From NCBI GenBank assembly GCA_965234775.1, contig OZ248562.1: 32,000 nucleotides of DNA, one strand, 5' to 3'. Within the stretch, counting starts at the first letter, position 1. The number at the start of each line of letters is the position of its first letter. Positions 7,770-32,000 of this stretch are shown piece by piece. The notes beneath the pieces were generated by a model. The model saw nothing but the letters and a program-made list of their open reading frames with translations, was not told the DNA's origin and did not search any database. Source of the stretch: Burkholderiaceae bacterium. Lineage in GTDB: Bacteria > Pseudomonadota > Gammaproteobacteria > Burkholderiales > Burkholderiaceae_C. The position numbers and the translations under genes were made by a program.

Positions 7770-8039
7770 CCACGGACTAAAGATTGGGCATTGATTTATA
7801 TAGATTTTTTTTGATAAAAAACAAGTATAAAACATTTGTCTAACAATCCACTAAAGTTGCCATAGCTTAATCATAGCGTGATTTGGGGTTGCACTGTGAC
7901 CATAGCTACGCTAAAGAATTACTATTCTCAATCAATAATCAGACACAAGATGAGTATAACTTTTCTGTGTTTTATTGATTTTTTGACATGATTTTTAAAC
8001 AGGAAATCAATCATTAAATCAACAGCTTAATAGGATTAG

Positions 8040-8056
8040 ATTGCACAGAGTGCAAT
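8040..8056. promoter_or_regulatory. Perfect palindrome ATTGCAC-AGA-GTGCAAT upstream of the HNH endonuclease gene (candidate operator)
   Basis: 7-bp arms read directly. It lies ~75 nt upstream of the ATG at 8132 and downstream of a TTGACA hexamer at 7983-7988. Confidence 0.35.
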
Positions 8057-8131
8057 ACGACATAAAACAAATACACACAAAGAAAGACTAATGAATTAGA
8101 ATTTACTACCTACATTGCTTTTGGTTAGCAT

Positions 8132-8776
8132 ATGCAAAACGATTTCGACGCATTCATTTCACACTTAAATCTTAGCGAAGTCAAGCTTAAAATGCTTAAG
8201 AGACTGTGGAATAGTGGAAATATTTTCCCAAAAGATTGGGTTAGAAGTAGTGAATTGTTAACCTTAACAAATCAGAAATATTTTGACCGACGACTACGAG
8301 AACTGAGAGACAGAGGTGGATTAGATTTGGAAACAAAGCAGATTAATGGCGAACATTGCTGGAGACTAAATTCCAATAATATTTCAAAAATCATCAATAG
8401 AACTTACTTAACAGCAAAACAAAAGATAGAAATGTTTGAACAAGCAAAACACACTTGTTCCATCTGCGGAAAATTTAGTTTAGCTGGAGTACGTGGACTC
8501 CAAGCAGATCATAGAGTTCCACTAACTCGAGGTGGAAGTGAAGAGCTTAGAAATTGGCAACCTATATGCAATGAATGCAATGTTGTCAAACGCAGACAAT
8601 GCCAAGACTGCACCTTAAATTGCGAAACTTGCAGTTGGGCTTATCCCGAAAAATCAAGCAAAAAATTGTTGATAAACATACCAAAAAATTTATCTCAAAA
8701 TCCCAAAATTAACCAACTAAATGACGAACAACTAGAAGCATTTTTTGTCCAATTACTTCGTAAAGATTTAGACTAA
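8132..8776 (+). CDS. HNH (His-Me finger) endonuclease, putative Type II restriction enzyme partner of the adjacent m5C methyltransferase
   Basis: C-terminal CSICG...ADHRVPLTRGG...NWQPICNECN...CQDC..CETC gives an HNH motif with CxxC zinc ligands. The N-terminal ~100 aa resemble a DNA-binding or winged-helix module (inference). Convergent with the MTase gene and overlapping it by 9 nt. Confidence 0.7.
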   Translation: MQNDFDAFISHLNLSEVKLKMLKRLWNSGNIFPKDWVRSSELLTLTNQKYFDRRLRELRDRGGLDLETKQINGEHCWRLNSNNISKIINRTYLTAKQKIEMFEQAKHTCSICGKFSLAGVRGLQADHRVPLTRGGSEELRNWQPICNECNVVKRRQCQDCTLNCETCSWAYPEKSSKKLLINIPKNLSQNPKINQLNDEQLEAFFVQLLRKDLD

Positions 8777-9751
8777 GCAAAACAGATTGTCTTCAATAGT
8801 TCTCTTTTGTTTTTTCTTCTTAAGTGCATTGATGATTGCTAAGCCAACAGCCCTTGCTACTGGGGGTGGAAAAGCATTACCAATTTGACGATAAGCAGAA
8901 GTCTTCTTTCCACAAAAATGCCACTCATCAGGGAATCCTTGAATACGTGCAGCCATACGCAATGTTAATCTTGGAGTGAAATCTAAAGGCGCGTCACTTC
9001 CAGGACCTACATCAACAATTCCCTTACCATCAACCTTGAGGTCTAACCATTGTCTCTTAGCCCTCGTTGGTCCTAAATCAGCACCGCCATGCTTCTTACT
9101 TCCACCAACAAGTGTTGGCGCAATCTTGTTTGAATAATTTAGCCACTTATCTGCACCTTGCCAACCATTTTCAGCAATCAAATCAAAAAGTGCATCCCCT
9201 ACTGTTACAACTTTATCTTCACCCTTAGGCCAAGTAAAATATTCAGCATATTCATCCTTAATCGCTACCAATATAAATCTTGGTCGCAATTGAGGAACAC
9301 CATAACTAGATGCATTCAATACACGCCAATCCGATTTGTAGCCCAGCTTAGAAAGTGTTTGTAAAATCCAAGCCCTATAGTTTTCAAACTTCGGAGTGGA
9401 TAAACCACGTACATTCTCTAGTAAAACAGCTTTGGGATTACATTGCTCTATAAGTCTTAGTGCGTCTGGAAATAAATCTCTATCATCTAAATTCCCTAAT
9501 TGCTTACCAGCCAAGGAGAAAGGTGGGCAAGGAACACCACCAGCAAAGAGATCAACACCATTAAATTTTTCAGCACTGAAAGATTTCACATCCTGTTCAA
9601 CTACATTCCACTTCGGGCGATTGTGTCTAAGTGTTTGACATGCATGTGCATCTATCTCTACTGTCGCTAAATGATTAAAGCCAGCCATCTCCAATCCTAA
9701 AGCTTGTCCACCAGCGCCTGCACATATCTCTATAGATGTAAATTTAGACAT
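8768..9751 (-). CDS. DNA (cytosine-5)-methyltransferase
   Basis: Motif I EICAGAGGQALG, motif IV GGVPCPPFS, motif VI LLENVRGL, motif VIII QLRPRFILVA, motif X GNAFPPPVA. Start taken at MSKFTSIE (9751). Confidence 0.9.
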   Translation of the reverse strand: MSKFTSIEICAGAGGQALGLEMAGFNHLATVEIDAHACQTLRHNRPKWNVVEQDVKSFSAEKFNGVDLFAGGVPCPPFSLAGKQLGNLDDRDLFPDALRLIEQCNPKAVLLENVRGLSTPKFENYRAWILQTLSKLGYKSDWRVLNASSYGVPQLRPRFILVAIKDEYAEYFTWPKGEDKVVTVGDALFDLIAENGWQGADKWLNYSNKIAPTLVGGSKKHGGADLGPTRAKRQWLDLKVDGKGIVDVGPGSDAPLDFTPRLTLRMAARIQGFPDEWHFCGKKTSAYRQIGNAFPPPVARAVGLAIINALKKKKQKRTIEDNLFCLV

Positions 9752-9762
9752 AAAAATGTTGA

Positions 9763-9814
9763 TTGAAAGAGGCTTGCACAGCTTATTATAATGGATACAA
9801 TACAAGATTGTATC
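9763..9814 (+). promoter_or_regulatory. Sigma70-like promoter (TTGAAA-18 nt-TATAAT) followed by an 8-bp perfect inverted repeat GATACAAT-N5-ATTGTATC
   Basis: -35 at 9763-9768, -10 at 9787-9792, inverted repeat at 9794-9801/9807-9814. It sits in the 92-nt divergent gap between the MTase gene and the H-NS-like gene. A TATAAT also reads on the opposite strand at the same place. Confidence 0.5.
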
Positions 9815-9843
9815 TCTCTAAACATTGGATAAAGGAACGAAAA

Positions 9844-10074
9844 ATGAGTAAAGTAGCTGAAATCAAAGCACGAATTGCTGCTGATCAAGAAGCACTAAAA
9901 GATGCTATTAAAGGTGAGAAGACAGAAGCACTAAAGCGAATTCGTCAAGAAATTAAAGACTTTGGTTTTAAGACAAGTGACTTCAAAGGTGTTCTTGCTA
10001 CACGCGCCAAGCGTAGTCCCAACGGTACACGTGCAGCTAAAAATGTTGCAGCTAAGAAAACCTCAAAAGGCTAA
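9844..10074 (+). CDS. Truncated H-NS-like protein (N-terminal oligomerisation-type coiled coil with a basic tail; no canonical C-terminal DNA-binding domain)
   Basis: MSKVAEIKARIAADQEALKDAIKGEKTEALKRIRQEIKDFGFKTSDF resembles the H-NS/BpH3 family N-terminus and the ..YG.t..D. linker pattern. It ends after a Lys/Arg-rich tail with no TWxGRG-type motif. AAGGA RBS lies before the ATG at 9844. Confidence 0.55.
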   Translation: MSKVAEIKARIAADQEALKDAIKGEKTEALKRIRQEIKDFGFKTSDFKGVLATRAKRSPNGTRAAKNVAAKKTSKG

Positions 10075-10077
10075 TAT

Positions 10078-10377
10078 ATGATTGTCGTAAAACACAACTC
10101 AAGTCGTAAGAGTTTAAACTTTAACGACAACTATTTTGAAGTTACGGGTGTGCCTATGACTATCAATAACACCAATGTGATAAGCGATGCGCTCAATGAC
10201 AAATTATCAATATATGGCGATGAAGCTTTTTCACCAAAAGCTGACGGAAGTTCCTACAATATTTCTGTAAGAGGATTGGCATCACAAACAATTTTTACTG
10301 ATGTTAGTGCTCTACAAGCGTATATTTTAGACAAGCTTAATTCTTGCCTATCAAAGTTAGAAGAACGGAATAATTAG
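10078..10377 (+). CDS. Hypothetical protein (99 aa), apparently co-transcribed with the H-NS-like gene
   Basis: ORF starts 3 nt after the upstream stop. No recognisable motif. AT-rich codon usage consistent with the island. The start codon is uncertain. Confidence 0.4.
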   Translation: MIVVKHNSSRKSLNFNDNYFEVTGVPMTINNTNVISDALNDKLSIYGDEAFSPKADGSSYNISVRGLASQTIFTDVSALQAYILDKLNSCLSKLEERNN

Positions 10378-10949
10378 ACCAACTCAATCGCTTTGCGTTT
10401 CATCGCGTCATTGACGTCTATGTAGCACTGGGTGGTTGACAGATTAGCATGCCTTGCGATGCTTTGTAGCACCCTAACGCTGACACCTTTATCAGCCAAG
10501 TTGGTAATTCCTGTGCGTCTTGGACTGTGACTTGAACCACCTGAAATGGCACAATTGCGGAATAAGTGGTGAAAGTGTTGGCATAAGGTATTGCTGCTCC
10601 AGCCTTCCGCTGGACGCTTTTGTGAGTAGAAAAGCTTGTCTGTGATTTCCTTGTATGGCACAGCCTTAACGTAAGTCTGTAGTTCTCGGCGTAGCTTATC
10701 ACTCACAAACACAGTACTGCCCTTGCCTCCCTTTGTCTGTTCTGCAGTCAAGTAAATCTCAGTTTTAACCTTGCCCTCTGCATCAAGTACATCTGCGTAG
10801 CGTAGTGCCGCACATTCTTTGACACGTAACATTGCGTACAGCATTGTCAAAAACATTGCTCTATTACGCTCAGCGTGGGGACGTGTAGCCACATAGTCCA
10901 GCACTCTACGTATTTCTTGTGCTGTGAGTACTTTTGCTTGTTTGGACAT
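10374..10949 (-). CDS. Small tyrosine recombinase (catalytic domain only, ~191 aa)
   Basis: Catalytic residues are readable: R in LRVKE, K in TKGGKGSTVFV, HSPRR (H-x-x-R), RHANLSTT (H) and QCY (Y). AGGAGA RBS lies 6 nt before the ATG at 10949. No N-terminal core-binding or arm-binding region. Confidence 0.85.
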   Translation of the reverse strand: MSKQAKVLTAQEIRRVLDYVATRPHAERNRAMFLTMLYAMLRVKECAALRYADVLDAEGKVKTEIYLTAEQTKGGKGSTVFVSDKLRRELQTYVKAVPYKEITDKLFYSQKRPAEGWSSNTLCQHFHHLFRNCAISGGSSHSPRRTGITNLADKGVSVRVLQSIARHANLSTTQCYIDVNDAMKRKAIELV

Positions 10950-11087
10950 TAGTGCTCTCCTAAATGTAAGTTTACTAATGCGAACAGTGTATTTTCTTTG
11001 TTTCTTAATTCCTACCTCTTTTTTACTTTGTTGATTCAAGTTATTTTCCTTAATGATTACGCCAGGTTAGCGTGTGTATAACAATAA

Positions 11088-11117
11088 ACCAAAGCTTTTA
11101 GCAATTAGCTTTGGTTT
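11088..11117. terminator. Perfect 10-bp stem hairpin AACCAAAGCT-N10-AGCTTTGGTT with T-rich flanks on both strands
   Basis: Read directly. It lies ~140 nt upstream of the small recombinase start, followed by TTTGTATTT on + and TTTATTGTT on -. Confidence 0.4.
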
Positions 11118-11160
11118 TGTATTTATTGGAAATACTGTGTGATTGCGACTTAATTAAGCA

Positions 11161-11296
11161 AGCTTGCGTATAAGCCCTGTACGCTGTTGCAAGCTGCGCC
11201 AGCTATCCAAGCCTAGCTCAGCTTGTTTTGTGCGTTTGTAGCTTGTTTAATTCAGCTTGCTTGTGTGCTTTGCTTTGTCGATTAGCTTGCGTAAGC
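11161..11296 (+). repeat. Iteron-like cluster of five same-strand AGCTTG motifs; the outer two extend to AGCTTGCGTA(TA)AGC
   Basis: AGCTTG at 11161, 11220, 11240, 11254 and 11284. The plus strand here is strongly G+T-rich. Inverted AGCTTGC/GCAAGCT at 11161-11167/11189-11195. Confidence 0.45.
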
Positions 11297-11481
11297 ACTA
11301 CCCTATTGCTCCTATGTAGACAACTCTGTTGTTTGATGTTGCGCTGTAATGTTTGGACGCAGTTAGCCATTTGTATGTGTGTTACTTGAGAACACATTGA
11401 TAGCGAAACTTTGTTTCGCTTGCGTCTTCGCTTACGCTCAACGCATTTTTCTTCTCTTAATTTTATTTGTGTTTTGACTTT

Positions 11482-11551
11482 TAATGCTCATTACTAGGAA
11501 GCACAAGCCACGCCCTGTTAAAGGGCGTAGCTTTAGCTAATGCTCATTACT
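11482..11551 (+). repeat. 14-bp direct repeat TAATGCTCATTACT (x2) flanking a 7-bp-stem hairpin ACGCCCT-GTTAA-AGGGCGT
   Basis: Copies at 11482-11495 and 11538-11551. Hairpin at 11510-11528. Confidence 0.5.
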
Positions 11552-11986
11552 GAGGGTTAACAACTGATATACACACAACTTGATTGATTACAAGAAAGGT
11601 AGGTTTTGCTATCACCTTTTATGTGCTTGCCTTACGCAACACACTCACAGCCTATATCAGTAGCTTTGTGGTGTGTTTATGGGTTGGATTGTGGCAGTCC
11701 CATTCACTTTCAGCCTATACATTTTCGTACTTGCTTACGTTCATACATCTCTGTATTACCAACCTGTACAACTTCGCAAACGTTTCTACGCAATGGCGTG
11801 ACGTTTAAGGCATCCAACGGTTAAATTGGGTAGTGCGATGAGGCTAACTATGAGAGAGTTAAATTGCTTACCGTCACACATCAGAACGGATTTCGCGGCA
11901 CTATTACAGTCGGCGTGCTAACCTTTATATCTCATTTATACCTTTATTTATGCGAAACCAAAGAATAGATTAAATTTTTCTTCTGG

Positions 11987-12015
11987 TTGACCTTAAAAAA
12001 GTCTGAAGTTACATT
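11987..12015 (+). promoter_or_regulatory. Candidate sigma70 promoter for the 12046-13026 gene pair (TTGACC-17 nt-TACATT)
   Basis: Hexamers at 11987-11992 and 12010-12015, ~30 nt upstream of the AAAGGAG RBS and the ATG at 12046. Confidence 0.4.
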
Positions 12016-12045
12016 AATAATTCACTTAACAAAAGGAGTTCTGCT

Positions 12046-12483
12046 ATGTCAGCAATTGCTAAATTGAAGCTTGTTTCTAGCAAGCGTGAACGTTTTCTTA
12101 GTCCAACTGTATCTCGTCGTCATAAACTAGCAGACAAGTTGGATGAGCAGCTTGCTCTTTGTCAAGCACAAAAAAATGGTGATGTTTACGCACCCAAGCG
12201 TATTAAGACCATAACCAAGCCAGATGGTGAGCGTGTACGTGTAGAAGCTGTCAAGCGTGTTAAAGAGTGGTTTTGGACCAATAGCAATGGAAAGATTAAC
12301 TTGGCTGTGCGTTATGGCAGCAAGACTTTGGAGCTTGGCAAAGGTAAAAACGCCATTGAACTCAGTACTGGTGATGAACTTATCAGCACCTTAGTGCTGC
12401 TTAAAGATGCTGTAATTGCTGGTGAATTGGATGAAGCTATCAACAACGCAAGTGATAAGTTACGTGCTGGCTTTGCTAAATGA
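12046..12483 (+). CDS. Hypothetical protein (145 aa), conserved-looking island protein of unknown function
   Basis: Strong RBS AAAGGAG. Basic N-terminus and KRVKEWFW...GKINLAVRYGSKTLELGKGKNAIEL core. No catalytic motif recognised. Confidence 0.7.
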   Translation: MSAIAKLKLVSSKRERFLSPTVSRRHKLADKLDEQLALCQAQKNGDVYAPKRIKTITKPDGERVRVEAVKRVKEWFWTNSNGKINLAVRYGSKTLELGKGKNAIELSTGDELISTLVLLKDAVIAGELDEAINNASDKLRAGFAK

Positions 12484-12491
12484 TTGATTAA

Positions 12492-12514
12492 GGACTGGCT
12501 TTTATTGCCAGTCC
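12492..12514 (+). terminator. Intercistronic hairpin GGACTGGC-TTTTATT-GCCAGTCC (attenuator or partial terminator)
   Basis: 8-bp perfect stem 9 nt after the stop at 12483. No clear downstream T-run. Confidence 0.35.
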
Positions 12515-12555
12515 ATTCTCCTATTCATGGCTAAATATAAGAATAGGAGATGACT

Positions 12556-13026
12556 ATGCGACTTTATGAAATTGCTGACGCTAAAGCACAACTAGAATTG
12601 CTACGAATAATTATTGACAACACTTGGTCAGCAATAGCACAACAAGCAGAACAGCAGAAACGTTCGGACGCGGAACGTAAGGCACTGGCTAAGCTTAAGC
12701 CACGTACTAAGAAATCACGTAAGGGTACAAGCATTCGTATACCTACACCTCCACCACTACCACCAAAGCAGCCTCAAGTCCAGTTAGCTAAACAACCACC
12801 CTCTTCACTTAACAACCTCAACCCTAACGCCTTAAACGCTGTAAAACCCCCACCTACCAATCCTCAAATTAAACCGTCGGCTACAATTACAGCAATCAAA
12901 CCTACGCCTGCGTTTATTCCTCAACCCAAGCCTATAGTCACTACATCCATCAAACCATCTAACGGTTTAAAATTGAGCACTTTAGAAAAAGAAGAAGATT
13001 GGTACGCTAAGTATAGAAATAATTAA
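12556..13026 (+). CDS. Hypothetical protein with N-terminal helical segment and long Pro/Gln/Lys-rich low-complexity region
   Basis: AGGAGA RBS lies 5 nt before the ATG at 12556; the track start at 12550 overlaps the RBS. PTPPPLPPKQPQVQ...KPPPTNPQIKP repeats. Confidence 0.55.
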   Translation: MRLYEIADAKAQLELLRIIIDNTWSAIAQQAEQQKRSDAERKALAKLKPRTKKSRKGTSIRIPTPPPLPPKQPQVQLAKQPPSSLNNLNPNALNAVKPPPTNPQIKPSATITAIKPTPAFIPQPKPIVTTSIKPSNGLKLSTLEKEEDWYAKYRNN

Positions 13027-13099
13027 TTCTATTTTAAAATAAACTTCTTTAAGGATGTAATACGTTTTCTCAAATTGCGTAATACTTCTGCCGTTTATC

Positions 13100-14365
13100 T
13101 TACCCACCTAGCTTAGTAGCAAGTGCTAAAGGTGTTGCTTGTTTACCATAGTATTTCTCAATTATTTGCACACTCGTACCCATATTTCTTGCTATATCAA
13201 ATATTGGTATCCCACGTTTTATCATCATTACAGCGTAAAAATGTCGCAAGCTGTACAGCGTATATTTCTCTTTGTCACGGCTTTCTGTCAAGCTTATTGA
13301 CTTAAGCAAAGCATTGAATTGGTCGATGAGTGTGACTATTTTGTTGCCATCGTACATACAGAAAAACCAACCGTCTGTATCTTTTAATTTTCTTTTTGGA
13401 CTTCGGACTTTTCTAACTTCCGCCTCTTGTGTTCTTACAAGATTCCGCCGTCTTACTCGTTCTACATATCTAACAACATTAGTTCGTGGAATAACAACTC
13501 TTCGTCCAGTCTTCCCACGCACTGAAAACATATAGTTTTTTCTTCCTAGCTCATCCTTAAATTCAACAATATCGTTGTCTTTTAAGTTGTTGGCTTCACC
13601 AACTCGTATGCCACTGTTAGACAATACCAGAACGTAATCTCTTAGCAGTTCCTTTGTGTACTTCCACTCCTTATTCTTTGTATCTTTTATGCCCTTACGC
13701 ATTCCTTTTATGATTTCCCAATACTCAGCTACTGTAAATGTTGGACGAACAATAGCTCTTTCTGCATTAAATCTGTATGTTGGCAGCTGTGTCTGTCCTC
13801 TGTATCCACGCTCATAAGCAAACTTTATCAGCGTCTTTCCTAGTGTCATCTCCCACTCTAATGTCTTATCAGCTGGGTTTATTTTGTGGTTTCGTGGACG
13901 CTTATCCTCTGCCATTCGGTGGTAATAATCTTTACGCCAGGGGATGTAATCTTGTAGAACAGCGTTGTCCATATTACTTACACTTTTTGTACCGCAGTAC
14001 TCTCTCCAAAACTTTGCTACTCGCTTAATTTGACGAAGCATATGAATACTTGTCTGCTGCCTTGAGCTTGAGTTCGTCTTAACGTCTAGACTTTTTTGGT
14101 ATTGACTTTGCCTAAGTGCGATGTATTCATCTATTACATCGCCAAAAGATTTTTGCTGTAGTGGCAGTCCTTCTCGCTGTTTATATTCCATCTCGTGGAG
14201 ATATTTCAAGGCTAATTTACGTGCCTCTTCTACCTTACGTGTCTTTAAGGTTTTGTAAATGTACTTCCTATCGCCTTTGTAAAAGCGTGCCTGATATATG
14301 CCGTTGCGACAGAAGATAAGGACTTTGCCGTCCTCTAATTCTTCCTTAAATTCTGTGCTTAACAT
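13100..14365 (-). CDS. int: Tyrosine integrase of the island
   Basis: C-terminal catalytic domain: SGIRVGE (R), GKTGRRVVIP (K), YSLRHFY (H-x-x-R), and the EKYYG tyrosine. Long N-terminal arm/core-binding region. Located directly inside the right att repeat. Confidence 0.9.
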   Translation of the reverse strand: MLSTEFKEELEDGKVLIFCRNGIYQARFYKGDRKYIYKTLKTRKVEEARKLALKYLHEMEYKQREGLPLQQKSFGDVIDEYIALRQSQYQKSLDVKTNSSSRQQTSIHMLRQIKRVAKFWREYCGTKSVSNMDNAVLQDYIPWRKDYYHRMAEDKRPRNHKINPADKTLEWEMTLGKTLIKFAYERGYRGQTQLPTYRFNAERAIVRPTFTVAEYWEIIKGMRKGIKDTKNKEWKYTKELLRDYVLVLSNSGIRVGEANNLKDNDIVEFKDELGRKNYMFSVRGKTGRRVVIPRTNVVRYVERVRRRNLVRTQEAEVRKVRSPKRKLKDTDGWFFCMYDGNKIVTLIDQFNALLKSISLTESRDKEKYTLYSLRHFYAVMMIKRGIPIFDIARNMGTSVQIIEKYYGKQATPLALATKLGG

Positions 14366-14458
14366 TTGCCTAACCTAGTCCATTAATCAACCTTTTGCCT
14401 AACAATTGTAAAACATCTTTCAAACCCTGTAAACCGCGTAACCTGTTGTTTTATAAGG

Positions 14459-17215
14459 CTAGGCCAGCTTGCCGTGGCAGTTTTTGAATTTTTTGCCGCT
14501 GCCGCAGGGGCAGGGTTCGTTGCGACCCACTTTGACCAGCCCCTGCGGGGCCAACTCAAATTCGCTGCTGGGACCGGCATAGGTATAGGCCTCGCCGGTT
14601 TCGCTGGGCGCGGTATAGGTGACGTTGCTGATCTTCTCGGCCTGCGCTTCCAAGGCTTGGGCAGCCTCGTCAATTTGCTGCTGCGATTGGATTTGCATGT
14701 TCATCAAGATGCGGGTCACTTCGGCCTTGACCTGGTCCAGCAACTGACCAAACAACTCAAATGCCTCGCGCTTGTACTCTTGCTTGGGTTGCTTTTGTGC
14801 ATAACCACGCAAGTGAATGCCTTGGCGCAAGTAGTCTAGGGAAGACAAATGTTCGCGCCAATGGTTATCGATGCTTTGCAACAACACCGCCCGCGTGAAG
14901 GGCGTGAGCTGACCAACCCCCAGATCAGCCACCTTGGTGGCAAAAGCGGCGTGGGCAGCGCTGACCACTTTTTCGACCACATCTTCATCAGACACCGATG
15001 TGGCGCCCTCGATCCAAGCTTGCAAACCCAGATTGATTTGCCACTCCATGGCGAGCGCGCGCTCCAAAGCGGGAATGTCCCACTGCTCTTCAACCGACTC
15101 CACCGGGACAAATTGGCGCACCAAGTCGGTGAAGCAGCCTTCGCGCAAGCTGGTGATTTGCGCGCTGAGGTCTTGGGCATCCAAGATGTCATTGCGCTGC
15201 TGATAGATCACCTTGCGCTGGTCATTGGAGACATCGTCGTACTCGAGCAACTGCTTGCGCACATCAAAATTGCGAGCCTCCACCTTGCGTTGAGCGCTTT
15301 CGATGCTGCGGGTGACGATACCGGCCTCAATCGCCTCGCCCTCTGGCATTTTCAGGCGGTCCATGATGGACTTGACCCGATCGCCCGCAAAAATGCGCAT
15401 CAGCGGATCGTCCAGGCTCAGGTAAAAACGCGATGAACCAGGGTCCCCCTGGCGGCCCGAACGGCCCCGCAACTGGTTGTCGATGCGGCGCGACTCATGG
15501 CGCTCAGTGGCGATGATGCGCAAACCGCCTTGCGCCACAACTTTGTCGTGATCCAACTGCCACTGGGCACGCAGGGCCTGCTCTTGCTGTGCGTGCTGAT
15601 CGGCGGGGATGGCCGCATCGGCTTGCATCGCAGAAATCATTTTTTCAAGGTTGCCGCCCAACACAATATCGGTGCCGCGGCCTGCCATGTTGGTGGCAAT
15701 GGTGATCATCTGGCTGCGCCCAGCTTGGGCCACGATGTCGGCTTCGCGCTCGTGTTGTTTGGCGTTGAGCACCTGGTGCGGCAGCTTGGCTTGGGTTAAC
15801 AAGGCGGAGATGATTTCCGAGTTTTCAATCGAGCTCGTGCCCACCAAAACCGGTTGGCCGCGCTCGTGGCAATCGCGGATGTCATCGATGGCGGCGGTGT
15901 ATTTTTCTTGGGTGGTTTTGTACACCCGATCGAGTTGGTCTTCGCGCCGGCTGATGCGGTTGGGCGGGATGACCACGGTTTCCAAACCGTAAATCTCTTG
16001 AAATTCGTAGGCCTCGGTATCGGCCGTCCCGGTCATGCCAGAGAGTTTGCCGTACAGGCGGAAATAGTTTTGAAAGGTGATGGACGCCAGGGTTTGGTTT
16101 TCGGCCTGGATGTTCACACCCTCTTTGGCTTCAACCGCTTGGTGCAAGCCATCGCTCCAACGCCGCCCCGACATCAAGCGCCCGGTGAACTCGTCGACGA
16201 TGACGATCTCGCCGTTTTGGTTCACATAGTGCTGATCGCGGTGGTAGAGGTGGTGCGCACGCAAAGCAGCGGTCAAGTGGTGCATCAGGCTGATGTTGGC
16301 GGGGTCGTACAACGACGCGCCTTCGGGCAGCATGCCCATCTCCACCAACAAGCGCTCAGAATTTTCATGGCCTTGTTCGGTGAGGAACACCTGGTGTGAT
16401 TTTTCATCCACCGTGAAGTCGCCCGCCTTGGTGACGCCTTCGCCAGTGCGCAAATCTTCTTCACCCTCTTGGCGCTGCAACTTGGGCACCAACTGGTTCA
16501 TGGCCACATAGCGCTCGGTGTGGTCCTCGGCTTGGCCGCTGATGATCAGCGGCGTGCGCGCCTCATCGATCAGGATGGAGTCCACCTCATCGACGATGGC
16601 GTAATGCAACTTGCGCTGCACGCGATCGGCAGGCTCGTAGACCATGTTGTCGCGCAAGTAATCAAAACCAAACTCGTTGTTGGTGCCGTAGGTGATGTCG
16701 CTGGCATAAGCCGCTTGCTTTTCTTCGCGCGACATTTGCGGCAGATTAACGCCCACACTCAAGCCCAAAAAGTTATACAAGCGCCCCATCCACTGCGCAT
16801 CGCGCTGGGCCAGGTAGTCGTTGACCGTCACCACATGCACCCCGCGACCGGTCAAGGCATTCAGGTAAACAGCCAGGGTGGCGGTGAGGGTTTTGCCCTC
16901 ACCGGTGCGCATTTCAGCCACTTTGCCATGGTGCAGTGCCATGCCACCGCTGAGCTGCACATCAAAGTGACGCATCTTCATGATGCGCTTGGAGCCTTCT
17001 CGCACAACAGCAAAAGCTTCAGGCAACAAATCGTCCAATGGGGTGCCGCCAGCCACTTGCTGTTTGAAGGCCTCCGTTTTGGCTTTGAGGGCTTCATCAG
17101 TCAGTTGCTCTAGGCTTGGCTCCAAGGCATTGATGCGTGCCACGGTCTTGCTGTACTGTTTGAGCAAGCGCTCATTGCGACTGCCGAATATCTGGGTCAA
17201 AAATTTAAAGGCCAT
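14459..17215 (-). CDS. secA: Preprotein translocase ATPase SecA
   Basis: Starts [25 protein letters not shown]-like motor motifs ([38 protein letters not shown]) and the C-terminal zinc motif [14 protein letters not shown]. The longer track ORF (to 17317) is an upstream extension. Confidence 0.95.
14463..14491. repeat. Right direct repeat (att site), forming the functional 3' end of secA
   Basis: Identical to 7741-7769. Here it is followed on the minus strand by island-derived C+TAG, so the island supplies the stop codon now in use. Confidence 0.9.
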
Positions 17216-17315
17216 GGATGGTGCATCAATCCCTCGGGCAGGGGCGCCCAAGAAGGTGAAGGGTTCCTTTGAAGTAGCCGGGCATTTTAGCGCTGACCGG
17301 TTGGATAATCGCCCC

Positions 17316-17618
17316 ATGAAACAACGCCCTCAAACGCTCACCGCCGAGCAAGCCGCCCGCTCCGAGCCCAGCCTCGCTCGCTTGGGCGCTTTGGGCCAAG
17401 ATTCGCTGCGCCGTTTGGCATCGATTGCCCCTTTGTTGCCCCCAGGGCTGCGCGAGGGCCTCAAAGCCGGGCCCATCGACGGTCAAACCTGGTGTGTGTT
17501 GGTGCCGAGCAATGCGGCGAGCGCCAAATTGCGCCAGTTGGAGCCAGCTTTGTTGGCCCATTTGCGCACCCAAGGTTGGGATGTGCAAAAAATGCGGGTG
17601 AAGATCATGTCCCGATGA
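17316..17618 (+). CDS. DUF721 (DciA-like) domain protein, divergent from secA
   Basis: [46 protein letters not shown] matches my recollection of the betaproteobacterial DUF721 protein found next to secA. Confidence 0.65.
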
Positions 17619-26890: not shown

Positions 26891-27250
26891 TTATCCCCGC
26901 AACCAGGGGCGCGGGCCGCCCATCACGTGAAAGTGCATGTGATGAACCTCTTGCCCGCCTTCCGTCCCGGTGTTGGTGACGATGCGAAAGCCACCCTCAG
27001 GGTACGGGCGGGCCCCTTGCTCCAAGGCCAGCTTGGGCGCCAGCAACAAAATACGCCCCAATAGGGCCTGGTGCTCGGGTTCCACCTGCGCCATGGACGG
27101 GATGTGTGCCTTGGGAATGATCAAAAAATGCACCGGCGCCCAGGGGTTGATGTCGTGGAAGGCGAAAATCTCTTCGTCCTCGTAAACCTTTTTGCTCGGT
27201 ATCTTGCCGGCAACGATTTTGCAAAAGATGCAGTTGGGGTCGGTGTGCAT
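26891..27250 (-). CDS. Histidine triad (HIT) nucleotide-binding protein
   Basis: CIFCKIVAGKIP and the HIT motif HHMHFHVMGG. Start at MHTDPN (27250). Confidence 0.85.
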   Translation of the reverse strand: MHTDPNCIFCKIVAGKIPSKKVYEDEEIFAFHDINPWAPVHFLIIPKAHIPSMAQVEPEHQALLGRILLLAPKLALEQGARPYPEGGFRIVTNTGTEGGQEVHHMHFHVMGGPRPWLRG

Positions 27251-27314
27251 GGTGAGTTTGGAGTGGATCGCCACGTCGCTTCGCACCTCGCGATGACGGG
27301 CTAAATGAACAAGT

Positions 27315-27683
27315 TTAATCTTCGCCGGCTTCACGGGCTTGCGCTTTGCGCAAGGCTTTTTCTTCCAAACCGCTCAAGCCTTCGCGGCGCGACAGCTCTT
27401 GCAACACATCCTCGGAGGTCAGGCCGTAATGCGCCAGCGCCACCAAGCTGTGGAACCACAGGTCGGCCATCTCGCCCACCAACTTGTGCGGGTCGCCGCC
27501 GTGGTCCAAGTCTTTGGCGGCCATCACCACCTCGGTGGCCTCTTCGCCAATTTTCTTCAAAAACGCGTCGGGGCCTTTGTGCAGCAACCTCGCCACATAG
27601 CTGGTGTCGGGGTTGCCGCCGTTGGCCGCTTTGCGGCTTTCAATGACCGCGGCCAAGCGGGCCAAGGTGTCGTCAGAGCTCAT
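27315..27683 (-). CDS. hisE: Phosphoribosyl-ATP pyrophosphatase
   Basis: [12 protein letters not shown]...SYVARLL.KG.D...[15 protein letters not shown]...E.ADLWFH. ATGA overlap with the hisI stop. Confidence 0.9.
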
Positions 27684-28090
27684 GGTTTGGCCTTGTAAAT
27701 GGTGGCGGGGTCTTGTAACACCGGCTCGACGCTCAACCACTGGCCGCCGTCGGGGCTGGTTTGCCAGCGTTGGTAAAAGCAGCTGTGGCGGCCGGTGTGG
27801 CAGGCAATGCTCGGGTCGTGGCCGGTTTGGGTGACGCTGAGCAAAATCACGTCGTTGTCGCAATCGAGGCGGATGTCGTGCACAGTTTGCACATGGCCCG
27901 ACTCTTCGCCCTTGAACCAAAGCTTGCCCCGTGAACGGCTGAAATACACCGCGCGGCCGAGTTCTGCAGTTTTTTGCAGCGCCTCGCGGTTCATCCACGC
28001 AAACATCAGCACGTCTTTGCTGCCCTGCTCTTGCGCGATGACCGGCACCAAGCCTTGGGCGTCCCATTTGATAGTGTCTAACCAATTCAT
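27680..28090 (-). CDS. hisI: Phosphoribosyl-AMP cyclohydrolase
   Basis: [21 protein letters not shown]...[10 protein letters not shown]...[18 protein letters not shown]...DCDNDVILL...CHTG. The track ORF extends further upstream but homology begins at 28090. Confidence 0.9.
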
Positions 28091-28235
28091 AGGGGGAGAT
28101 GTTAAGGGCATCGCTAGATCCGGAAATGAAGGCCTTTTGCCCATTTCAGTTTCCATCGCCGCCAAGGAGATTGGCTTCACATTCAAGGAAATAGCTTTTA
28201 CAATACCTGATCAACTACCTGAACAGGTCCAGACC

Positions 28236-28490
28236 ATGCAAGTCATCAGTTACACCGACGCCCGCAACTCGCTCAAAGCCGTGATTGACAAGGTCATAGA
28301 CGATCAAGCGCCCACGTTGATTCACCGCCGCGAAGGAGGCAATGCAGTGCTGATGTCTGAAGAGGCTTACGCCAGCATGCAGGAAACTTTTTATTTGATG
28401 TCCAACCCAGCCAATGCTCGCGCCCTGCTACGTTCGATTGAACAGGCCAAAGCAGGAAAGGCCAAAAAGCGTCAGTTGTTGGATGTATGA
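28236..28490 (+). CDS. yefM: YefM/Phd-family antitoxin
   Basis: MQVISYTDARNSLKAVIDKVIDDQAPTLIHRREGGNAVLMSEEAYASMQETFYLMSNPANA closely parallels E. coli YefM. Its start sits inside a long antisense-of-hisI ORF in the track. Confidence 0.9.
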   Translation: MQVISYTDARNSLKAVIDKVIDDQAPTLIHRREGGNAVLMSEEAYASMQETFYLMSNPANARALLRSIEQAKAGKAKKRQLLDV

Positions 28491-28750
28491 GGGAGATCCA
28501 CTTCACCCCTGATGGGTGGGACGCCTATGTGTGGTGGCAAGGTCAGGATCGCAAAACCCTCAAGCGCATCAACACGCTGATCAACGCCGCTTGCCGAGAA
28601 CCCTTTACCGGCATTGGCAAACCAGAACCCTTGGTGGGTAACTTGTCAGGCTATTGGTCTCGCCGAATTGATGACACCCATCGGCTGGTTTACGAAGCCG
28701 ATGATGCGGCGGTACTCATCATCGCTTGTCGGTTTCATTACGATAAATGA
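28487..28750 (+). CDS. yoeB: YoeB/Txe-family mRNA interferase toxin
   Basis: WDAYVWWQGQDRKTLKRINTLI...EPFTGIGKPEPL..NLSGYWSRRIDDTHRLVY...IIACRFHY parallels E. coli YoeB. 4-nt overlap with yefM. Confidence 0.9.
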   Translation: MREIHFTPDGWDAYVWWQGQDRKTLKRINTLINAACREPFTGIGKPEPLVGNLSGYWSRRIDDTHRLVYEADDAAVLIIACRFHYDK

Positions 28751-28756
28751 GCGGCC

Positions 28757-28763
28757 GTTAGGC
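28757..28763 (-). repeat. Isolated attC R''-type box (GCCTAAC on the minus strand) after hicB; the rest of the attC is missing
   Basis: GTTAGGC on the plus strand lies 8 nt beyond the hicB stop. The sequence beyond it runs straight into the 3' end of yoeB with no matching L''/L'/R' boxes. Confidence 0.35.
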
Positions 28764-28770
28764 AAGTAAC

Positions 28771-29103
28771 TCAGGACGCCACACGCAGCTGCAAAGCCTC
28801 TTGCGCCAGCAGGTTGATACTTTTGCCCTGGGCCTGCGCCGCAATGGCCAGTTGCTCATGCAACTCGGGTGAAATGCGAAGGTTAAATTTGCCCGAGAAA
28901 TTTCTTTTGGGCTCAATGCCTTTTTCCTGGCACACATCCAGAAAGACCTGCAAAGACTTTTTGAACTCTGTGCGCAACTCCTTGGGATTCTTTCCATAGA
29001 AGTCAGCCCCGCCATTGAGCCCGAGAATTTCCCCGCGAAACAGGTCTAGCTCTTCGTCGTATTCGATCTTGGCGTGATAGCCATCAACTGTCATGGTGTT
29101 CAT
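28771..29103 (-). CDS. hicB: HicB-family antitoxin (with C-terminal RHH-like DNA-binding segment)
   Basis: VDGYHAKIEYDEELDLFRGEILGLNGGADFYGKNPKELRTEFKKSL..FL..C.EKG.EP...FSGKFNLRISPELH is HicB-like. Start at MNTMTV (29103), with an ATGA overlap with the upstream hicA-like frame. Confidence 0.8.
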   Translation of the reverse strand: MNTMTVDGYHAKIEYDEELDLFRGEILGLNGGADFYGKNPKELRTEFKKSLQVFLDVCQEKGIEPKRNFSGKFNLRISPELHEQLAIAAQAQGKSINLLAQEALQLRVAS

Positions 29104-29254
29104 GGTTCTACTCCGTGCTGCTCTAGCCATTTACGAATGCTGGCGACAGCGCCTTTGTCGGTGTTGGGGGATGGGTGGGGTCTGTGAAACACCCTAACTT
29201 CTCCAAACAGCACCACCGCCACGCGGCTGCCTTCTCGCTCACTGACCTCTGCAT
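29100..29254 (-). pseudogene. hicA: Decayed hicA-like toxin gene (no in-frame start for the conserved part)
   Basis: The frame ending at TGA 29100-29102 reads LERYAEVSEREGSRVAVVLFGEVRVFHRPHPSPNTDKGAVASIRKWLEQHGVEP. This aligns by eye with E. coli HicA (...GSNHLKLRFHGRRSVMPRHP...LRKAILKQLGL). It is closed by a TAG inside attC at its 5' end. The only ATG (29254) is in another frame and terminates after 43 codons. Confidence 0.5.
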
Positions 29255-29344
29255 AACGTTCAAGCTAACCGGGCGGCGACGGCAGGACGCCAGACCGGGC
29301 CTGGTGGCCTGCCGTTGGCGCTCCGCTTGAGAGAGGGGTTAGGC
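29251..29344 (-). repeat. Integron attC site (94 bp) between the orphan cassette and the hicAB cassette
   Basis: Minus strand: GCCTAAC-CCCTC-TCTCAAGC...imperfect long palindrome (GGAGCGCCAACGGCAGG / CCTGCCGTCGCCGCCC)...GCTTGA-AC-GTTATGC. This gives R'', L'', L' and R' boxes with bulged bases. Confidence 0.65.
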
Positions 29345-29368
29345 CCCGCTCGCTGGGCATGACTGCGG

Positions 29369-29971
29369 CTAGCGAACATCTACTGTGTAGCCGGGCAAAT
29401 TCTTACGATAGTTGCGTATAAGTTCTACTACGCGTTCGATTGCCACCAAGTAGTCCTGTGCAGATTCAGGATTGGGGACTACCTGCGCATGCGCGACTTG
29501 ATTGCGCAACTGCCGAAGATTCTGAATCAGTTGTCTTGTTCCTAAGGGAAGTACATCGGAGTCCATGATTGCACGGTAGACCTTGGCTTGACTTTCAAGC
29601 GGATCAACCACGACCTGCGTTTGACGGCCCAGCTTGTGTAGCTCTCCGTCTAGGGTTGACCAGCTTTCAATAATGGCTGCGGTGGGTTCAGATCGAGCCG
29701 TAAGCAGCTTGGCTGTGGCCTCCTCAAAGCTATGCCTAGGCACTGATGCGGGAACATCTGGCACTTGCGCCTGCGGAGCTAGTTCAGCGGTTCCGACCAG
29801 CACCTGCTTGGTTGCGAGCTCAAACTCTGCTTCTAGTGGTCCTGCCTTCACCCGGCGTAAAGTAGGAATCAACTCAAGCAGCTTCTTTCGAAAAAGTAAT
29901 CCGAGAACAACGCCAGCAACTGGCCACGCAAGCGAGTCGATCAGCTTACTTGTGAATGTGAGCCAGTCCAT
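29369..29971 (-). CDS. Hypothetical cassette protein: N-terminal transmembrane helix plus C-terminal helical domain resembling DUF4145
   Basis: LIDSLAWPVAGVVLGLLF hydrophobic helix. C-terminal LIQNLRQLRNQVAHAQ...SAQDYLVAIERVVELI resembles the R-x-x-R-N-x-x-A-H signature I associate with DUF4145. Bounded by attC sites on both sides. Confidence 0.65.
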   Translation of the reverse strand: MDWLTFTSKLIDSLAWPVAGVVLGLLFRKKLLELIPTLRRVKAGPLEAEFELATKQVLVGTAELAPQAQVPDVPASVPRHSFEEATAKLLTARSEPTAAIIESWSTLDGELHKLGRQTQVVVDPLESQAKVYRAIMDSDVLPLGTRQLIQNLRQLRNQVAHAQVVPNPESAQDYLVAIERVVELIRNYRKNLPGYTVDVR

Positions 29972-30005
29972 GGTCTTTCGAGTCGCTGACGGTGGGTGAT
30001 GCGTG

Positions 30006-30083
30006 GCCTAACGTTGAAGTTAACCAGAAAATTGTGGATGGCGAAGCCAGCCGCAATTTGTCCGGTTGAACGACCAGTTAGGC
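30006..30083 (-). repeat. Integron attC site (78 bp) following the 5'-nucleotidase cassette
   Basis: Minus strand: GCCTAAC-TGGTC-GTTCAACC...GGTTAAC-TTCAAC-GTTAGGC. R''/R' are perfectly complementary. L'' carries an extra C relative to L', as in canonical attC top strands. The ORF stop TAA lies inside R''. Confidence 0.7.
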
Positions 30084-31052
30084 CTCAGGCTTAGGCGATG
30101 ATGCATTTAGCGGGGAATCCGAGCGGTACGGAACCTTTCCGGACGGGATGAATTTGGCTGCCGGGTCAAGGTGCAGATCTTGGTCGTCGAAGAAGATGTG
30201 CGCTCGAAACGCCTTTACTACCTTTGTCTTGTCGACTCCGCCAAGGAAGAAAATTTCGTTGACGTAGATGCCCCAGTGGCGAAGTGTCTTTATCACTCGC
30301 ATCTCAGCTGGAGAGTTCCTTGCGGTGACTATCGCGATTCGGACAGGCGAGAACTCAACACTGACCGTTAATCGTTTCTGCAGTCTCGCAAGCTTTCGAA
30401 GCAGTTGAGCGTAAGGGCCATCCTGCATTGGCTCATCTTGCTTGTTGTCCTCTGCCGTGTGGAAACCTTTCAGTCCCTCAATCTTGTAGACGATCTCGCT
30501 ACTTTCATCGAAGAGCACAGCATCGCCGTCGAAGGCGATTCGCACGTGATCATCCGGCAGTGGGGGTCGATCTGCTGGCGGAGGCTTGACGATCGCCGCT
30601 GCACAAAGCTTTCCATCAATTACCCGCTGTGCGTCCTTAACGTTCGTAGTCAGAAATAGGTCAACATCAAACGCATCTAGGTATTCGACTACGGACTCTC
30701 CGCCAGTGAATGCGTGACGTGAGATTGGCAGGCCTCGCTTTCGAATGTTGTTAAACACCTGCACGCCGGTCTCCGGACTATTTCGAGACATCACAACCAC
30801 TTCCACAAGTGGGTTCTTGTCGCCTTCCTGCTGAAAGCGGTTCAGCGCCAGCAGTGACTTGACCAACGGCATGGCCGTCCCATCGGCCAGGTCCTCTTTC
30901 TCGTGGTCGAGCATATAGGCTCGATACTCTACAACAGCTGTCTGACGGTCTTGCTCGAACTTGGCGCGGAAGACGGCATCGGCTGCTTTGAGGTCGAAGA
31001 GTGCCGTGGCTGCAATGCTAACGACGAGTGTGTCGGAAAGGTCAAGTGGCAT
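30078..31052 (-). CDS. Cytosolic 5'-nucleotidase IA (cN-IA)-family HAD-like nucleotidase, encoded as the first integron cassette
   Basis: LVVSIAATALFDL, VRIAFDGDAVLFDESSE, IAIVTARNSPAEMRVIKTLRHWG and HIFFDDQDLH align by eye with human NT5C1A motifs (VAFDGDAVLFSDESE, YLVTARSA...ALKTLRSWG, HIFFDDQ). Start at MPLDLS (31052); a GTG at 31088 is the alternative. Confidence 0.85.
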   Translation of the reverse strand: MPLDLSDTLVVSIAATALFDLKAADAVFRAKFEQDRQTAVVEYRAYMLDHEKEDLADGTAMPLVKSLLALNRFQQEGDKNPLVEVVVMSRNSPETGVQVFNNIRKRGLPISRHAFTGGESVVEYLDAFDVDLFLTTNVKDAQRVIDGKLCAAAIVKPPPADRPPLPDDHVRIAFDGDAVLFDESSEIVYKIEGLKGFHTAEDNKQDEPMQDGPYAQLLRKLARLQKRLTVSVEFSPVRIAIVTARNSPAEMRVIKTLRHWGIYVNEIFFLGGVDKTKVVKAFRAHIFFDDQDLHLDPAAKFIPSGKVPYRSDSPLNASSPKPEA

Positions 31053-31208
31053 GGTTTGTTCTCTGAGGCCTAAAGTGATGTAGACCACAAAACCCTGTTC
31101 ATACCTCCGACCAGATTCGACACATCAGTTTGATGCAATGCCTGCAAGCCGCGTTCGCTATGGCTCAGCGGTTCATGAACTGTGAATTCATAAAGATAAA
31201 AATTTGCC

Positions 31209-31310
31209 ATGAAAGTCAGTGCCCCTTCCTTGCAGTTCACCCGCTTACTTGACCAGCTGCACGAGTGCTTGCGTTATGGGCACTATAGCTTCAAAATGTG
31301 TATTAATTAG
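31209..31310 (+). pseudogene. intI: Integron integrase (IntI) N-terminal remnant, about 29 homologous codons followed by an unrelated AT-rich tail and a stop
   Basis: MKVSAPSLQFTRLLDQLHECLRYGHYSFK parallels IntI N-termini (IntI1 ...[24 protein letters not shown]). Similarity ends at ~31295 and the frame stops at 31308-31310. Orientation is divergent from the cassettes, as in integrons. Confidence 0.6.
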
Positions 31311-31445
31311 CTCAATTAAGTGAATATTTATATTATTTATGAATCAATAATTATTCGGAATCTCTGTGTCTTTTAAGGCCCATCAGTGGGGTCAAACGCC
31401 AGCACCCTGTGTATGAAGAAAGGCTATCGGCTCAACCCAACCAAC

Positions 31446-32000
31446 TCACAACCTCACAGGTATCCCCCGCTCCCGCATCCTCTGCTTGGCCTGCTGCACC
31501 GTGTACTCACCATAGTGAAAAATACTGGCAGCCAGCACCGCATCGGCGCCGCCGGTTTGAATGCCGTCGGCCAAGTGGTCCAGGTTGCCCACGCCACCCG
31601 ATGCAATCACCGGCACGGGCACGGCGTCGCTGACTGCGCGGGTCAGCGCCAAATCAAAGCCGCTTTTGGTGCCGTCGCGGTCCATGCTGGTGAGCAAGAT
31701 TTCACCCGCGCCGTGTTCTGCCATTTGCGTGGCCCAGGCCACGGCGTCAAGGCCGACGTTTTTGCGGCCGCCGTGGCTGTACACATCCCAGCCCGGGCCC
31801 ATGGGTACGCCATGTGAATCCAATCGCTGTTCTTCAAGCGCAGAGCGGCGCTTGGCGTCAATCGCCACCACGATGCACTGTGCGCCGTATTTGGCAGACG
31901 CATCGCGAATGACTTGCGGGTTGGCAATGGCCGCTGAGTTGAAGCTGGTTTTGTCGGCACCTGCATTCAGCAATCGGCGAACATCGTCCACGGTGCGCAC
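31446..32000 (-). CDS. hisF: Imidazole glycerol phosphate synthase cyclase subunit HisF (5' part lies outside the window)
   Basis: [76 protein letters not shown] are typical HisF. The ORF is open to the window end. Confidence 0.95.

Follow-up and report, generated by a model that had tools for sequence, protein, structure and literature searches.

The window analysed here is a stretch of 32,000 nucleotides (nt) of contig OZ248562.1 (assembly GCA_965234775.1, Burkholderiaceae bacterium), which carries genes of histidine biosynthesis on its minus strand. Between the stop codon of hisF (31446-31448) and the ATG of hisI (28090) lie 3,355 nt (28091-31445). We read the minus strand in the order hisF, divergent stump of an integron integrase gene (intI), attI, cassette 1, attC, cassette 2, attC, decayed toxin-antitoxin modules and hisI-hisE (Table 1). 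The region holds a decayed integron platform, in which attI is degraded and two cassettes are structurally intact. With a probability of about 0.9, the segment 28110-31445 is what remains of a chromosomal integron with IntI of the soil/freshwater proteobacterial type, carried inside the his operon by an uncultured Comamonadaceae lineage from freshwater. In a literature search no paper linking an integron to hisF or hisI was found; the element is a known kind of relic at a locus for which no earlier description was found.

Table 1 Features of the hisF-hisI region in the window (aa, amino acids; HMM, hidden Markov model; ORF, open reading frame)
Feature	Position	Strand	Description
hisF, 3' part	31446..32000	-	runs off the window; Pfam PF00977, E=4e-49
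spacer from hisF stop to intI stump	31344..31445		conserved with sister locus L013 only (pairwise and five-locus alignments)
intI stump	31209..31343	+	decayed and truncated; codons 1-29 clear (31209-31295), the rest A+T-rich, to position 45 of the clade HMM
region from intI start to attI	31087..31208	-	conservation profile of 41 unique loci; LexA-box count
attI simple site	31068..31086	-	GGTCTACATCAC-TTTAGGC; crossover position 31074 is T, not G
cassette 1	30012..31073	-	ORF from ATG at 31052 to 30081, 324 aa; 5'-nucleotidase-family protein, PF06189, E=9e-111
attC_a	30006..30083	-	78 nt; GCCTAAC-5 nt-GTT(C)AACCGG ... CTGGTTAAC-6 nt-GTTAGGC
cassette 2	29257..30011	-	ORF 29372-29971, 200 aa; N-terminal hydrophobic segment, weakly HEPN-like
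attC_b	29251..29344	-	94 nt; GCCTAAC ... GTTATGC; covariance model R1 79.3 bits
decayed hicAB module	28774..29250	-	hicB 28774-29130 intact; 5' half of hicA lost
lone R''-type half-site GCCTAAC	28758..28764	-	after hicB; no partner R' box; read from the sequence
yefM-yoeB	28236..28750	+	opposite to the his genes; Pfam PhdYeFM E=2e-23, YoeB E=3e-37
hisI-proximal insert end	28110..28235		junction GCGAT, then GCCCTTAAC; compared in L003, L005, L006, L007, L008, L009 and L010
hisI	27683..28090	-	NCBIfam NF000768 E=5e-51 and NF001611 E=2e-48 for the hisI/hisE pair
hisE	27318-27683	-	downstream of hisI

An earlier annotation made from the letters of the window (the sequence-only reading) had described hisF and hisI-hisE as split by 3.35 kb, and the comparison with other contigs bore this out. 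The identical HisI protein was looked up in public assemblies and led to contigs from freshwater metagenomes. One of them (L001) represents the same locus as the window and shows a complete hisF of 266 aa. In four others (L003, L005, L006, L009) hisF and hisI are separated by an empty spacer of 37-38 nt, and in L007, L008 and L010 other toxin-antitoxin modules stand ahead of hisI. Furthermore, 80 Comamonadaceae loci were retrieved with HisI, and most of those having both genes have a gap below 150 nt. Given these short gaps, the separation is real, derived or at least polymorphic, and unusual. Comparison of filled and empty alleles showed that the insert proper (28110-31445) replaces 18-19 nt of the empty spacer. 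Its G+C content is 52.5% vs 57.8% in the flank. The hisI-proximal segment (28110..28235) differs in length among the strains, and L007 carries brnT-brnA there; a derivation of 28110-28175 from this brnTA was considered, and the alignment was unconvincing.

The ORF starting at 31209 on the plus strand encodes MKVSAPSLQFTRLLDQLHECLRYGHYSFK, an IntI N-terminus. Its only NCBIfam match was the integron integrase NF011946 over profile positions 8-32 (E=0.023). Because this match is weak when taken alone, relatives were gathered via attI. A DNA profile (nhmmer) built from the intI 5' ends of 14 related loci matched the window at E=1e-29, ending at the HYSFK codons, and the protein HMM of the clade aligned to the stump over positions 1-45 with 29.4 bits. 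The A+T-rich stretch past codon 29 is thus decayed coding sequence. Better-preserved homologous N-terminal ORFs of the attI relatives matched integron integrase with E=1e-14 to 1e-43. A divergent IntI N-terminal remnant at 31209, as had been proposed, is therefore confirmed by three profiles. No further intI was detectable in the window with tblastn or the DNA profile; the catalytic and C-terminal regions are absent, and the integrase gene is reduced to about 45 or fewer decayed codons. The spacer towards hisF, in which the IntI profiles were silent, may be further decayed intI. Compared with the sequence which we take to be that of IntI1, the stump is 50% identical over 24 residues and the better-preserved N-termini of the clade are 53-67% (about 60%) identical. 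Two tyrosine recombinases are encoded elsewhere in the window (10377-11039 and 13103-14365), more than 15 kb away; both scored best as Xer-type, and neither is an integron integrase.

Integron integrases recombine the folded bottom strand of a cassette attC with attI between G and TT, and promoterless cassettes are thereby stacked in one orientation. In the window the core TTTAGGC runs from 31074 to 31068 on the minus strand, 135 nt from the intI ATG, at about the distance the sequence-only reading had given; the T instead of G at the crossover, also pointed out there, was corroborated by related loci. Sister locus L013, a separate species-representative metagenome-assembled genome whose HisI is 94% identical, has the same stump beside hisF and the site GGTCTACATCAC-GTTAGGC, and its sequence departs from that of the window right past the core. 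Scanning of metagenome contigs with the attI 19-mer yielded 50 contigs, all but one with G at the crossover position (49/50). On this sequence comparison the G-to-T change in the core is real and derived. The sole other contig with T (L091, attI at 1174-1192) has a different sequence context, and its change probably arose independently. Past GTTAGGC the sequence varies from contig to contig with few repeats, and homology ends exactly there, as expected of a junction between attI and attC.

The region between intI and attI was profiled with 41 unique loci. Their consensus contains two GATGTATC direct repeats and a LexA-box-like CTGT-N8-ACAG, and the best conserved part is the stretch of about 20 nt upstream of the searched 19-mer. 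In the window both GATGTATC repeats, the LexA-box-like motif and several more conserved positions are mutated. An intact CTGT-N8-ACAG was found in one of the 41 loci, L124, about 120 nt upstream of attI. The motif in the family consensus suggests a lost SOS control site. The attI of the window is homologous to the site in the 50 contigs and has an altered core and mutated upstream repeats; as a site of cassette joining it is putative.

The search for attC used a covariance model (R1) whose ten training sites came from metagenome loci (six), L013 (two) and the window itself (two). R1 found just two sites in the window, both on the cassette strand. For attC_a 69.9 bits were obtained on the minus strand vs 13 bits on the plus strand, and plus-strand readings of the two sites gave 12-13 bits. 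The bottom strands, which correspond to the plus strand of the window, fold at -18.1 kcal/mol (attC_a, z=-5.3) and -29.4 kcal/mol (attC_b, z=-4.9). The geometry, R''-5 nt-L'' with an extra base and L'-6 nt-R', identifies the minus strand as the top strand, in agreement with the direction of the ORFs. In other attI loci R1 recovered many non-training sites (25-82 bits); they share the orientation of attI without exception and lie downstream of it everywhere but in L122. The best match in 1.3 Mb of control his loci reached 20.3 bits (E=0.09). Chance is excluded as the source of the attC matches. Even with filters off, no attC was found by R1 in 27900-29250, the lone GCCTAAC included. The GC skew of -0.013 was too flat for placing the attC bottom strand on a replication strand. 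Two other detectors had been tried and were replaced by the covariance model: a loose search for R''/R' boxes with folding was unspecific (922 candidates in 1.4 Mb), and an energy filter for 'mini-hairpins' lacked sensitivity, failing to find the sites of the window itself. L122 has a further pair of matches (1784-1852, 41 bits; 2153-2210, 32 bits) on the far side of its intI remnant, some 3 kb upstream of attI; the pair is oriented like the main array and could be a second or rearranged one.

Each cassette ORF lies directly upstream of its attC, and the TAA stop codon of cassette 1 falls within the R'' box of attC_a. Over its full length, the PADLOC profile of the candidate phage-defence family PDC-S08 is matched by the protein of cassette 1 (E=1e-122), in line with recent reports of integron cassettes storing defence genes. 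The 324-aa gene call is present in L001; an exact protein look-up of the 324-aa protein found no record. For the protein of cassette 2, Pfam HEPN_Swt1 was matched at E=0.004, below the family cut-off, and PADLOC CARF_HEPN at E=0.001. Its exact look-up returned the same array alone. The pair of cassettes recurs on two other contigs, and the same array was assembled independently from separate samples (Logan, JGI and ENA data).

The sequence-only reading had counted three attC-delimited cassettes, all running along the his genes. Two complete attC on the minus strand and the orientation of cassettes 1 and 2 stand; in place of a third attC there is the lone GCCTAAC half-site. The hisI-proximal third, taken there for a cassette bounded by attC, consists instead of toxin-antitoxin debris free of attC, with the yefM-yoeB module on the opposite strand. 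HicB was recognised by Pfam HicB (E=2e-21, 76.3 bits), and the HicA remnant reached 21.6 bits vs a cut-off of 27 and covers profile positions 31-57 only. The hicA sequence is entered mid-gene directly after the R' box of attC_b, and L013 has an intact hicA in the alignment. An intact HicA with HicB, as in a complete HicAB module, does not occur in the window. In contrast, yefM-yoeB has the composition of a type II pair (PF02604 82.6 bits, PF06769 127.1 bits, each exceeding its cut-off; gene overlap of 4 nt), preceded by a promoter-like site at 28176-28204 in a promoter scan. Close relatives differ in this distal part, with brnTA, DUF433/PIN-like genes or a co-oriented yoeB abutting hisI. Toxin-antitoxin modules of these kinds are abundant in other arrays of the attI family. 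We also observed that toxin genes decay and antitoxins survive: hicA is truncated in the window (29103-29250) and intact in L013, and brnT seems internally deleted in L013 (7960-8023) and is intact in L007.

Loci with the same attI occur in many unrelated chromosomal contexts. In all attI-bearing loci, IntI similarity beyond about residue 130 is absent from the 2.5 kb upstream of attI, and the best 120 database homologues of the clade N-terminus (P0001-P0120) all have 101-223 aa, some of them on contigs of 0.2-2 Mb. The latter end at differing nonsense or frameshift positions, and integrases broken in separate events seem to prevail in the whole clade. Widespread decay of intI is a known pattern (PMC2426708; Xanthomonas study, bioRxiv 10.1101/2025.06.18.660453). 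L142 (8001-8970) has the classical layout; its intI still encodes the IntI-specific patch but stops at codon 202 and has lost C-terminal sequence, and five divergent attC sites and many toxin-antitoxin cassettes accompany it. Five loci are linked to hisF, namely the window, L013, L095, L134 and L136, in all of which the attI crossover lies 314-372 nt past the hisF stop. Their stumps are similar in length, and the first cassette, which starts right after the core, is different in each. This group could have arisen by a single ancestral truncation with later cassette turnover in trans, by exchange of entire arrays through recombination in the his flanks, or by repeated independent events. Relatives of the window have an empty site, other cassettes on the same truncated platform, or other toxin-antitoxin modules; the inserted genes are no conserved neighbours within the his operon.

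Under the definition made for IntegronFinder (Cury et al. 2016, PMC4889954), the element is a cluster of attC sites lacking integron integrase (CALIN), one which retains an intI stump and attI. The definition asks for at least two attC within 4 kb on one strand, and here 29251-29344 and 30006-30083 lie on the minus strand with no integron integrase nearby. As in other CALIN, two attC are found about 660 nt apart on one strand, nothing is detectable with the IntI C-terminal profile, and the cassettes are unrelated to antibiotic resistance. The element differs by its N-terminal intI stump, its recognisable attI and its position within a biosynthetic operon; intI pseudogenes were reported near only 15/279 CALIN (Cury et al., PMC4889954). 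At least one attC lies on the strand divergent from intI, as in a complete integron, and the IntI-specific additional domain required for that class is absent. Sedentary chromosomal integrons have >19 attC (classification of Cury et al., PMC4889954) and occur in most genomes of a species; here there are two attC, and strains with identical HisI have empty-site alleles. Neither near-identity to IntI1 nor the attI1 sequence, both characteristic of class 1, was found.

With class 1, class 3 and the soil/freshwater-group integrons the element shares the divergent intI, the attI, the co-oriented cassettes and, ahead of a GTTAGGC core in attI, two direct repeats. The attC geometry (R''-5 nt-L'', L'-6 nt-R', extra L'' base) is presumably also like that of the class 1/3 group, judged by what we take to be the aadA1 attC; the attI sequence differs from that of class 1. 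The Xanthomonas integrons by ilvD (bioRxiv 10.1101/2025.06.18.660453; Nemergut et al. 2008, PMC2426708) are comparable in their chromosomal platform beside an amino-acid biosynthesis gene, common to related lineages, with repeated intI decay and short arrays. They are gammaproteobacterial and lie downstream of a gene, whereas the element of the window is betaproteobacterial and lies between two operon genes. Unlike them, all five hisF-linked copies are truncated and empty sites occur in the same population. The Vibrio superintegron (bioRxiv 10.1101/2024.07.02.601686) also contains toxin-antitoxin modules, here HicAB and YefM-YoeB with BrnTA in relatives, and defence cassettes, here the PDC-S08 match of the first cassette. 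In contrast, the window holds a tiny array of two attC with no integrase, and no attC accompanies its toxin-antitoxin modules.

Several points weigh against an integron relic. The hisI-proximal 1.1 kb has no attC, and the integron origin of this part is therefore inferred from context only. R1 includes the two sites of the window, so that their high scores are partly circular; the support for them comes from the independent R1 matches and the clean control. In a consensus scan of 27900-31600 no sigma-70-like (Pc-type) site was found on the minus strand; the part of intI equivalent to the Pc region may be deleted. Clustering by pairwise identity did not group the five hisF-linked stumps, and a single origin is not supported thereby. 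Transcription of the cassettes by read-through of the his operon is a plausible but hypothetical part of this reading.

It would be a different matter if the insert were a toxin-antitoxin or defence islet that arose by an unrelated mechanism, with palindromes and an IntI-like peptide due to chance or an assembly artefact. Half of the insert lacks attC, and unrelated insertions occur at the hisF-hisI junction in L090, L075, L081 and L053. However, the contigs with the attI 19-mer, the covariance model with its control and the intI profiles all favour an integron, and assemblies made separately from Logan, JGI and ENA data agree on this structure. The covariance-model control together with the behaviour of the attI junction already contradicts an islet, which we regard as extremely improbable. 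Hardly more credible is a history in which an integrase from another locus placed the cassettes singly into a secondary GTT-type site between hisF and hisI and no platform was ever present here. CALIN can arise by secondary-site insertion (PMC4889954), and a GTTAGAC lies within hisI codons 3-5. This motif was rejected as a secondary recombination site, since it is not conserved (several strains have GGCTAGAC) and is away from the junction. The array is headed by an intI stump and a family-typical attI, which contradicts insertion at a secondary site.

A further explanation accepts the platform and doubts that the array is frozen: an integrase elsewhere or on mobile DNA would still use the orphan attI and attC throughout the lineage, and the window would hold a recently disabled copy. 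The five hisF-linked loci point in this direction, because their stumps are similar in length and different first cassettes follow GTTAGGC directly. So does the conservation of the roughly 20 nt upstream of the 19-mer, with the intI remnant far more decayed. About one fifth of the integron-bearing lineages have more than one intI (PMC2426708), and a possible mobilisation of CALIN cassettes by integrases in trans has been proposed (Cury et al., PMC4889954). But no intact IntI of the clade was seen, none beyond about residue 130 within 2.5 kb upstream of attI, and the best 120 protein homologues are all short. The attI of the window has the TTTAGGC core and mutated upstream repeats, and truncations of separate origin, or homologous recombination involving the his flanks, could also explain why the arrays differ. 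We consider continued use of this kind possible, though rather unlikely. A more general form is put forward even more tentatively: the cis integrase would be dead almost throughout the family, with attI still conserved and still acquiring new first cassettes, and orphan platforms at several chromosomal loci, the one in the his operon among them, might be served by an integrase in trans, with the his promoter replacing Pc at the his locus. Because this attI is found at numerous loci and almost every integrase is defective, servicing of orphan attI and attC arrays in trans in nature is directly testable.

Under the preferred reading, a decayed integron platform, the element should be unable to rearrange by itself. 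Only cassette 2, between two good attC, would be excisable, given an integrase in trans; both attC look intact and could still serve such an enzyme. The array had been described as apparently frozen, like a CALIN-type relic; the CALIN assignment and the degraded attI agree with this, but with two intact-looking attC and the possible excision of cassette 2 the freezing is shown in part only. The cassettes and hisI-hisE would be transcribed by read-through from the his promoter. Read-through is suggested by the co-orientation of the cassettes with the his genes, the promoter scan of the minus strand without a hit, the lack of a convincing terminator and the intact hisI-hisE.

Outside the insert, hisI-hisE is followed on the minus strand by a HIT-family gene, tatABC and a gene for a DegP-type protease. 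No Rfam family was matched at E<=1 in 27000-32000 (copy searched). The window also contains a low-G+C island at 8000-14400 (39% at 8-12 kb vs about 58% in the flanks) with an HNH-type endonuclease-like ORF (8132-8773), a Dcm cytosine methyltransferase (8771-9805) and both tyrosine recombinase-like ORFs; a 952-aa ORF (14459-17317) adjoins it. At the hisF-hisI junction of other Comamonadaceae, unrelated insertions were observed in L090, L075, L081, L053 and several Hydrogenophaga loci (gap of about 630 nt), and none of these gave an attC match. Accessory DNA seems to have settled at this junction repeatedly. The gap in L090 (2553-5909) also measures exactly 3,355 nt, but contains a methyltransferase and a PhoX-like gene, and the equal length is coincidental.

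The known mechanism of integrons is unchanged by this finding. The locus offers a natural example of integron death, in which the integrase is lost first, then attI, then toxin genes and distal attC sites, and population polymorphism with an empty site and different arrays exists alongside the dead integron. Its location would force the transcription of hisI-hisE across foreign cassettes, which makes it a natural test of the cargo tolerance of an operon and of takeover by a host promoter. If orphan platforms are indeed served in trans under the his promoter, the expression of the cassettes, including the candidate phage-defence gene, would be tied to the regulation of histidine biosynthesis, and the expression of hisI-hisE would depend on transcription across the array.

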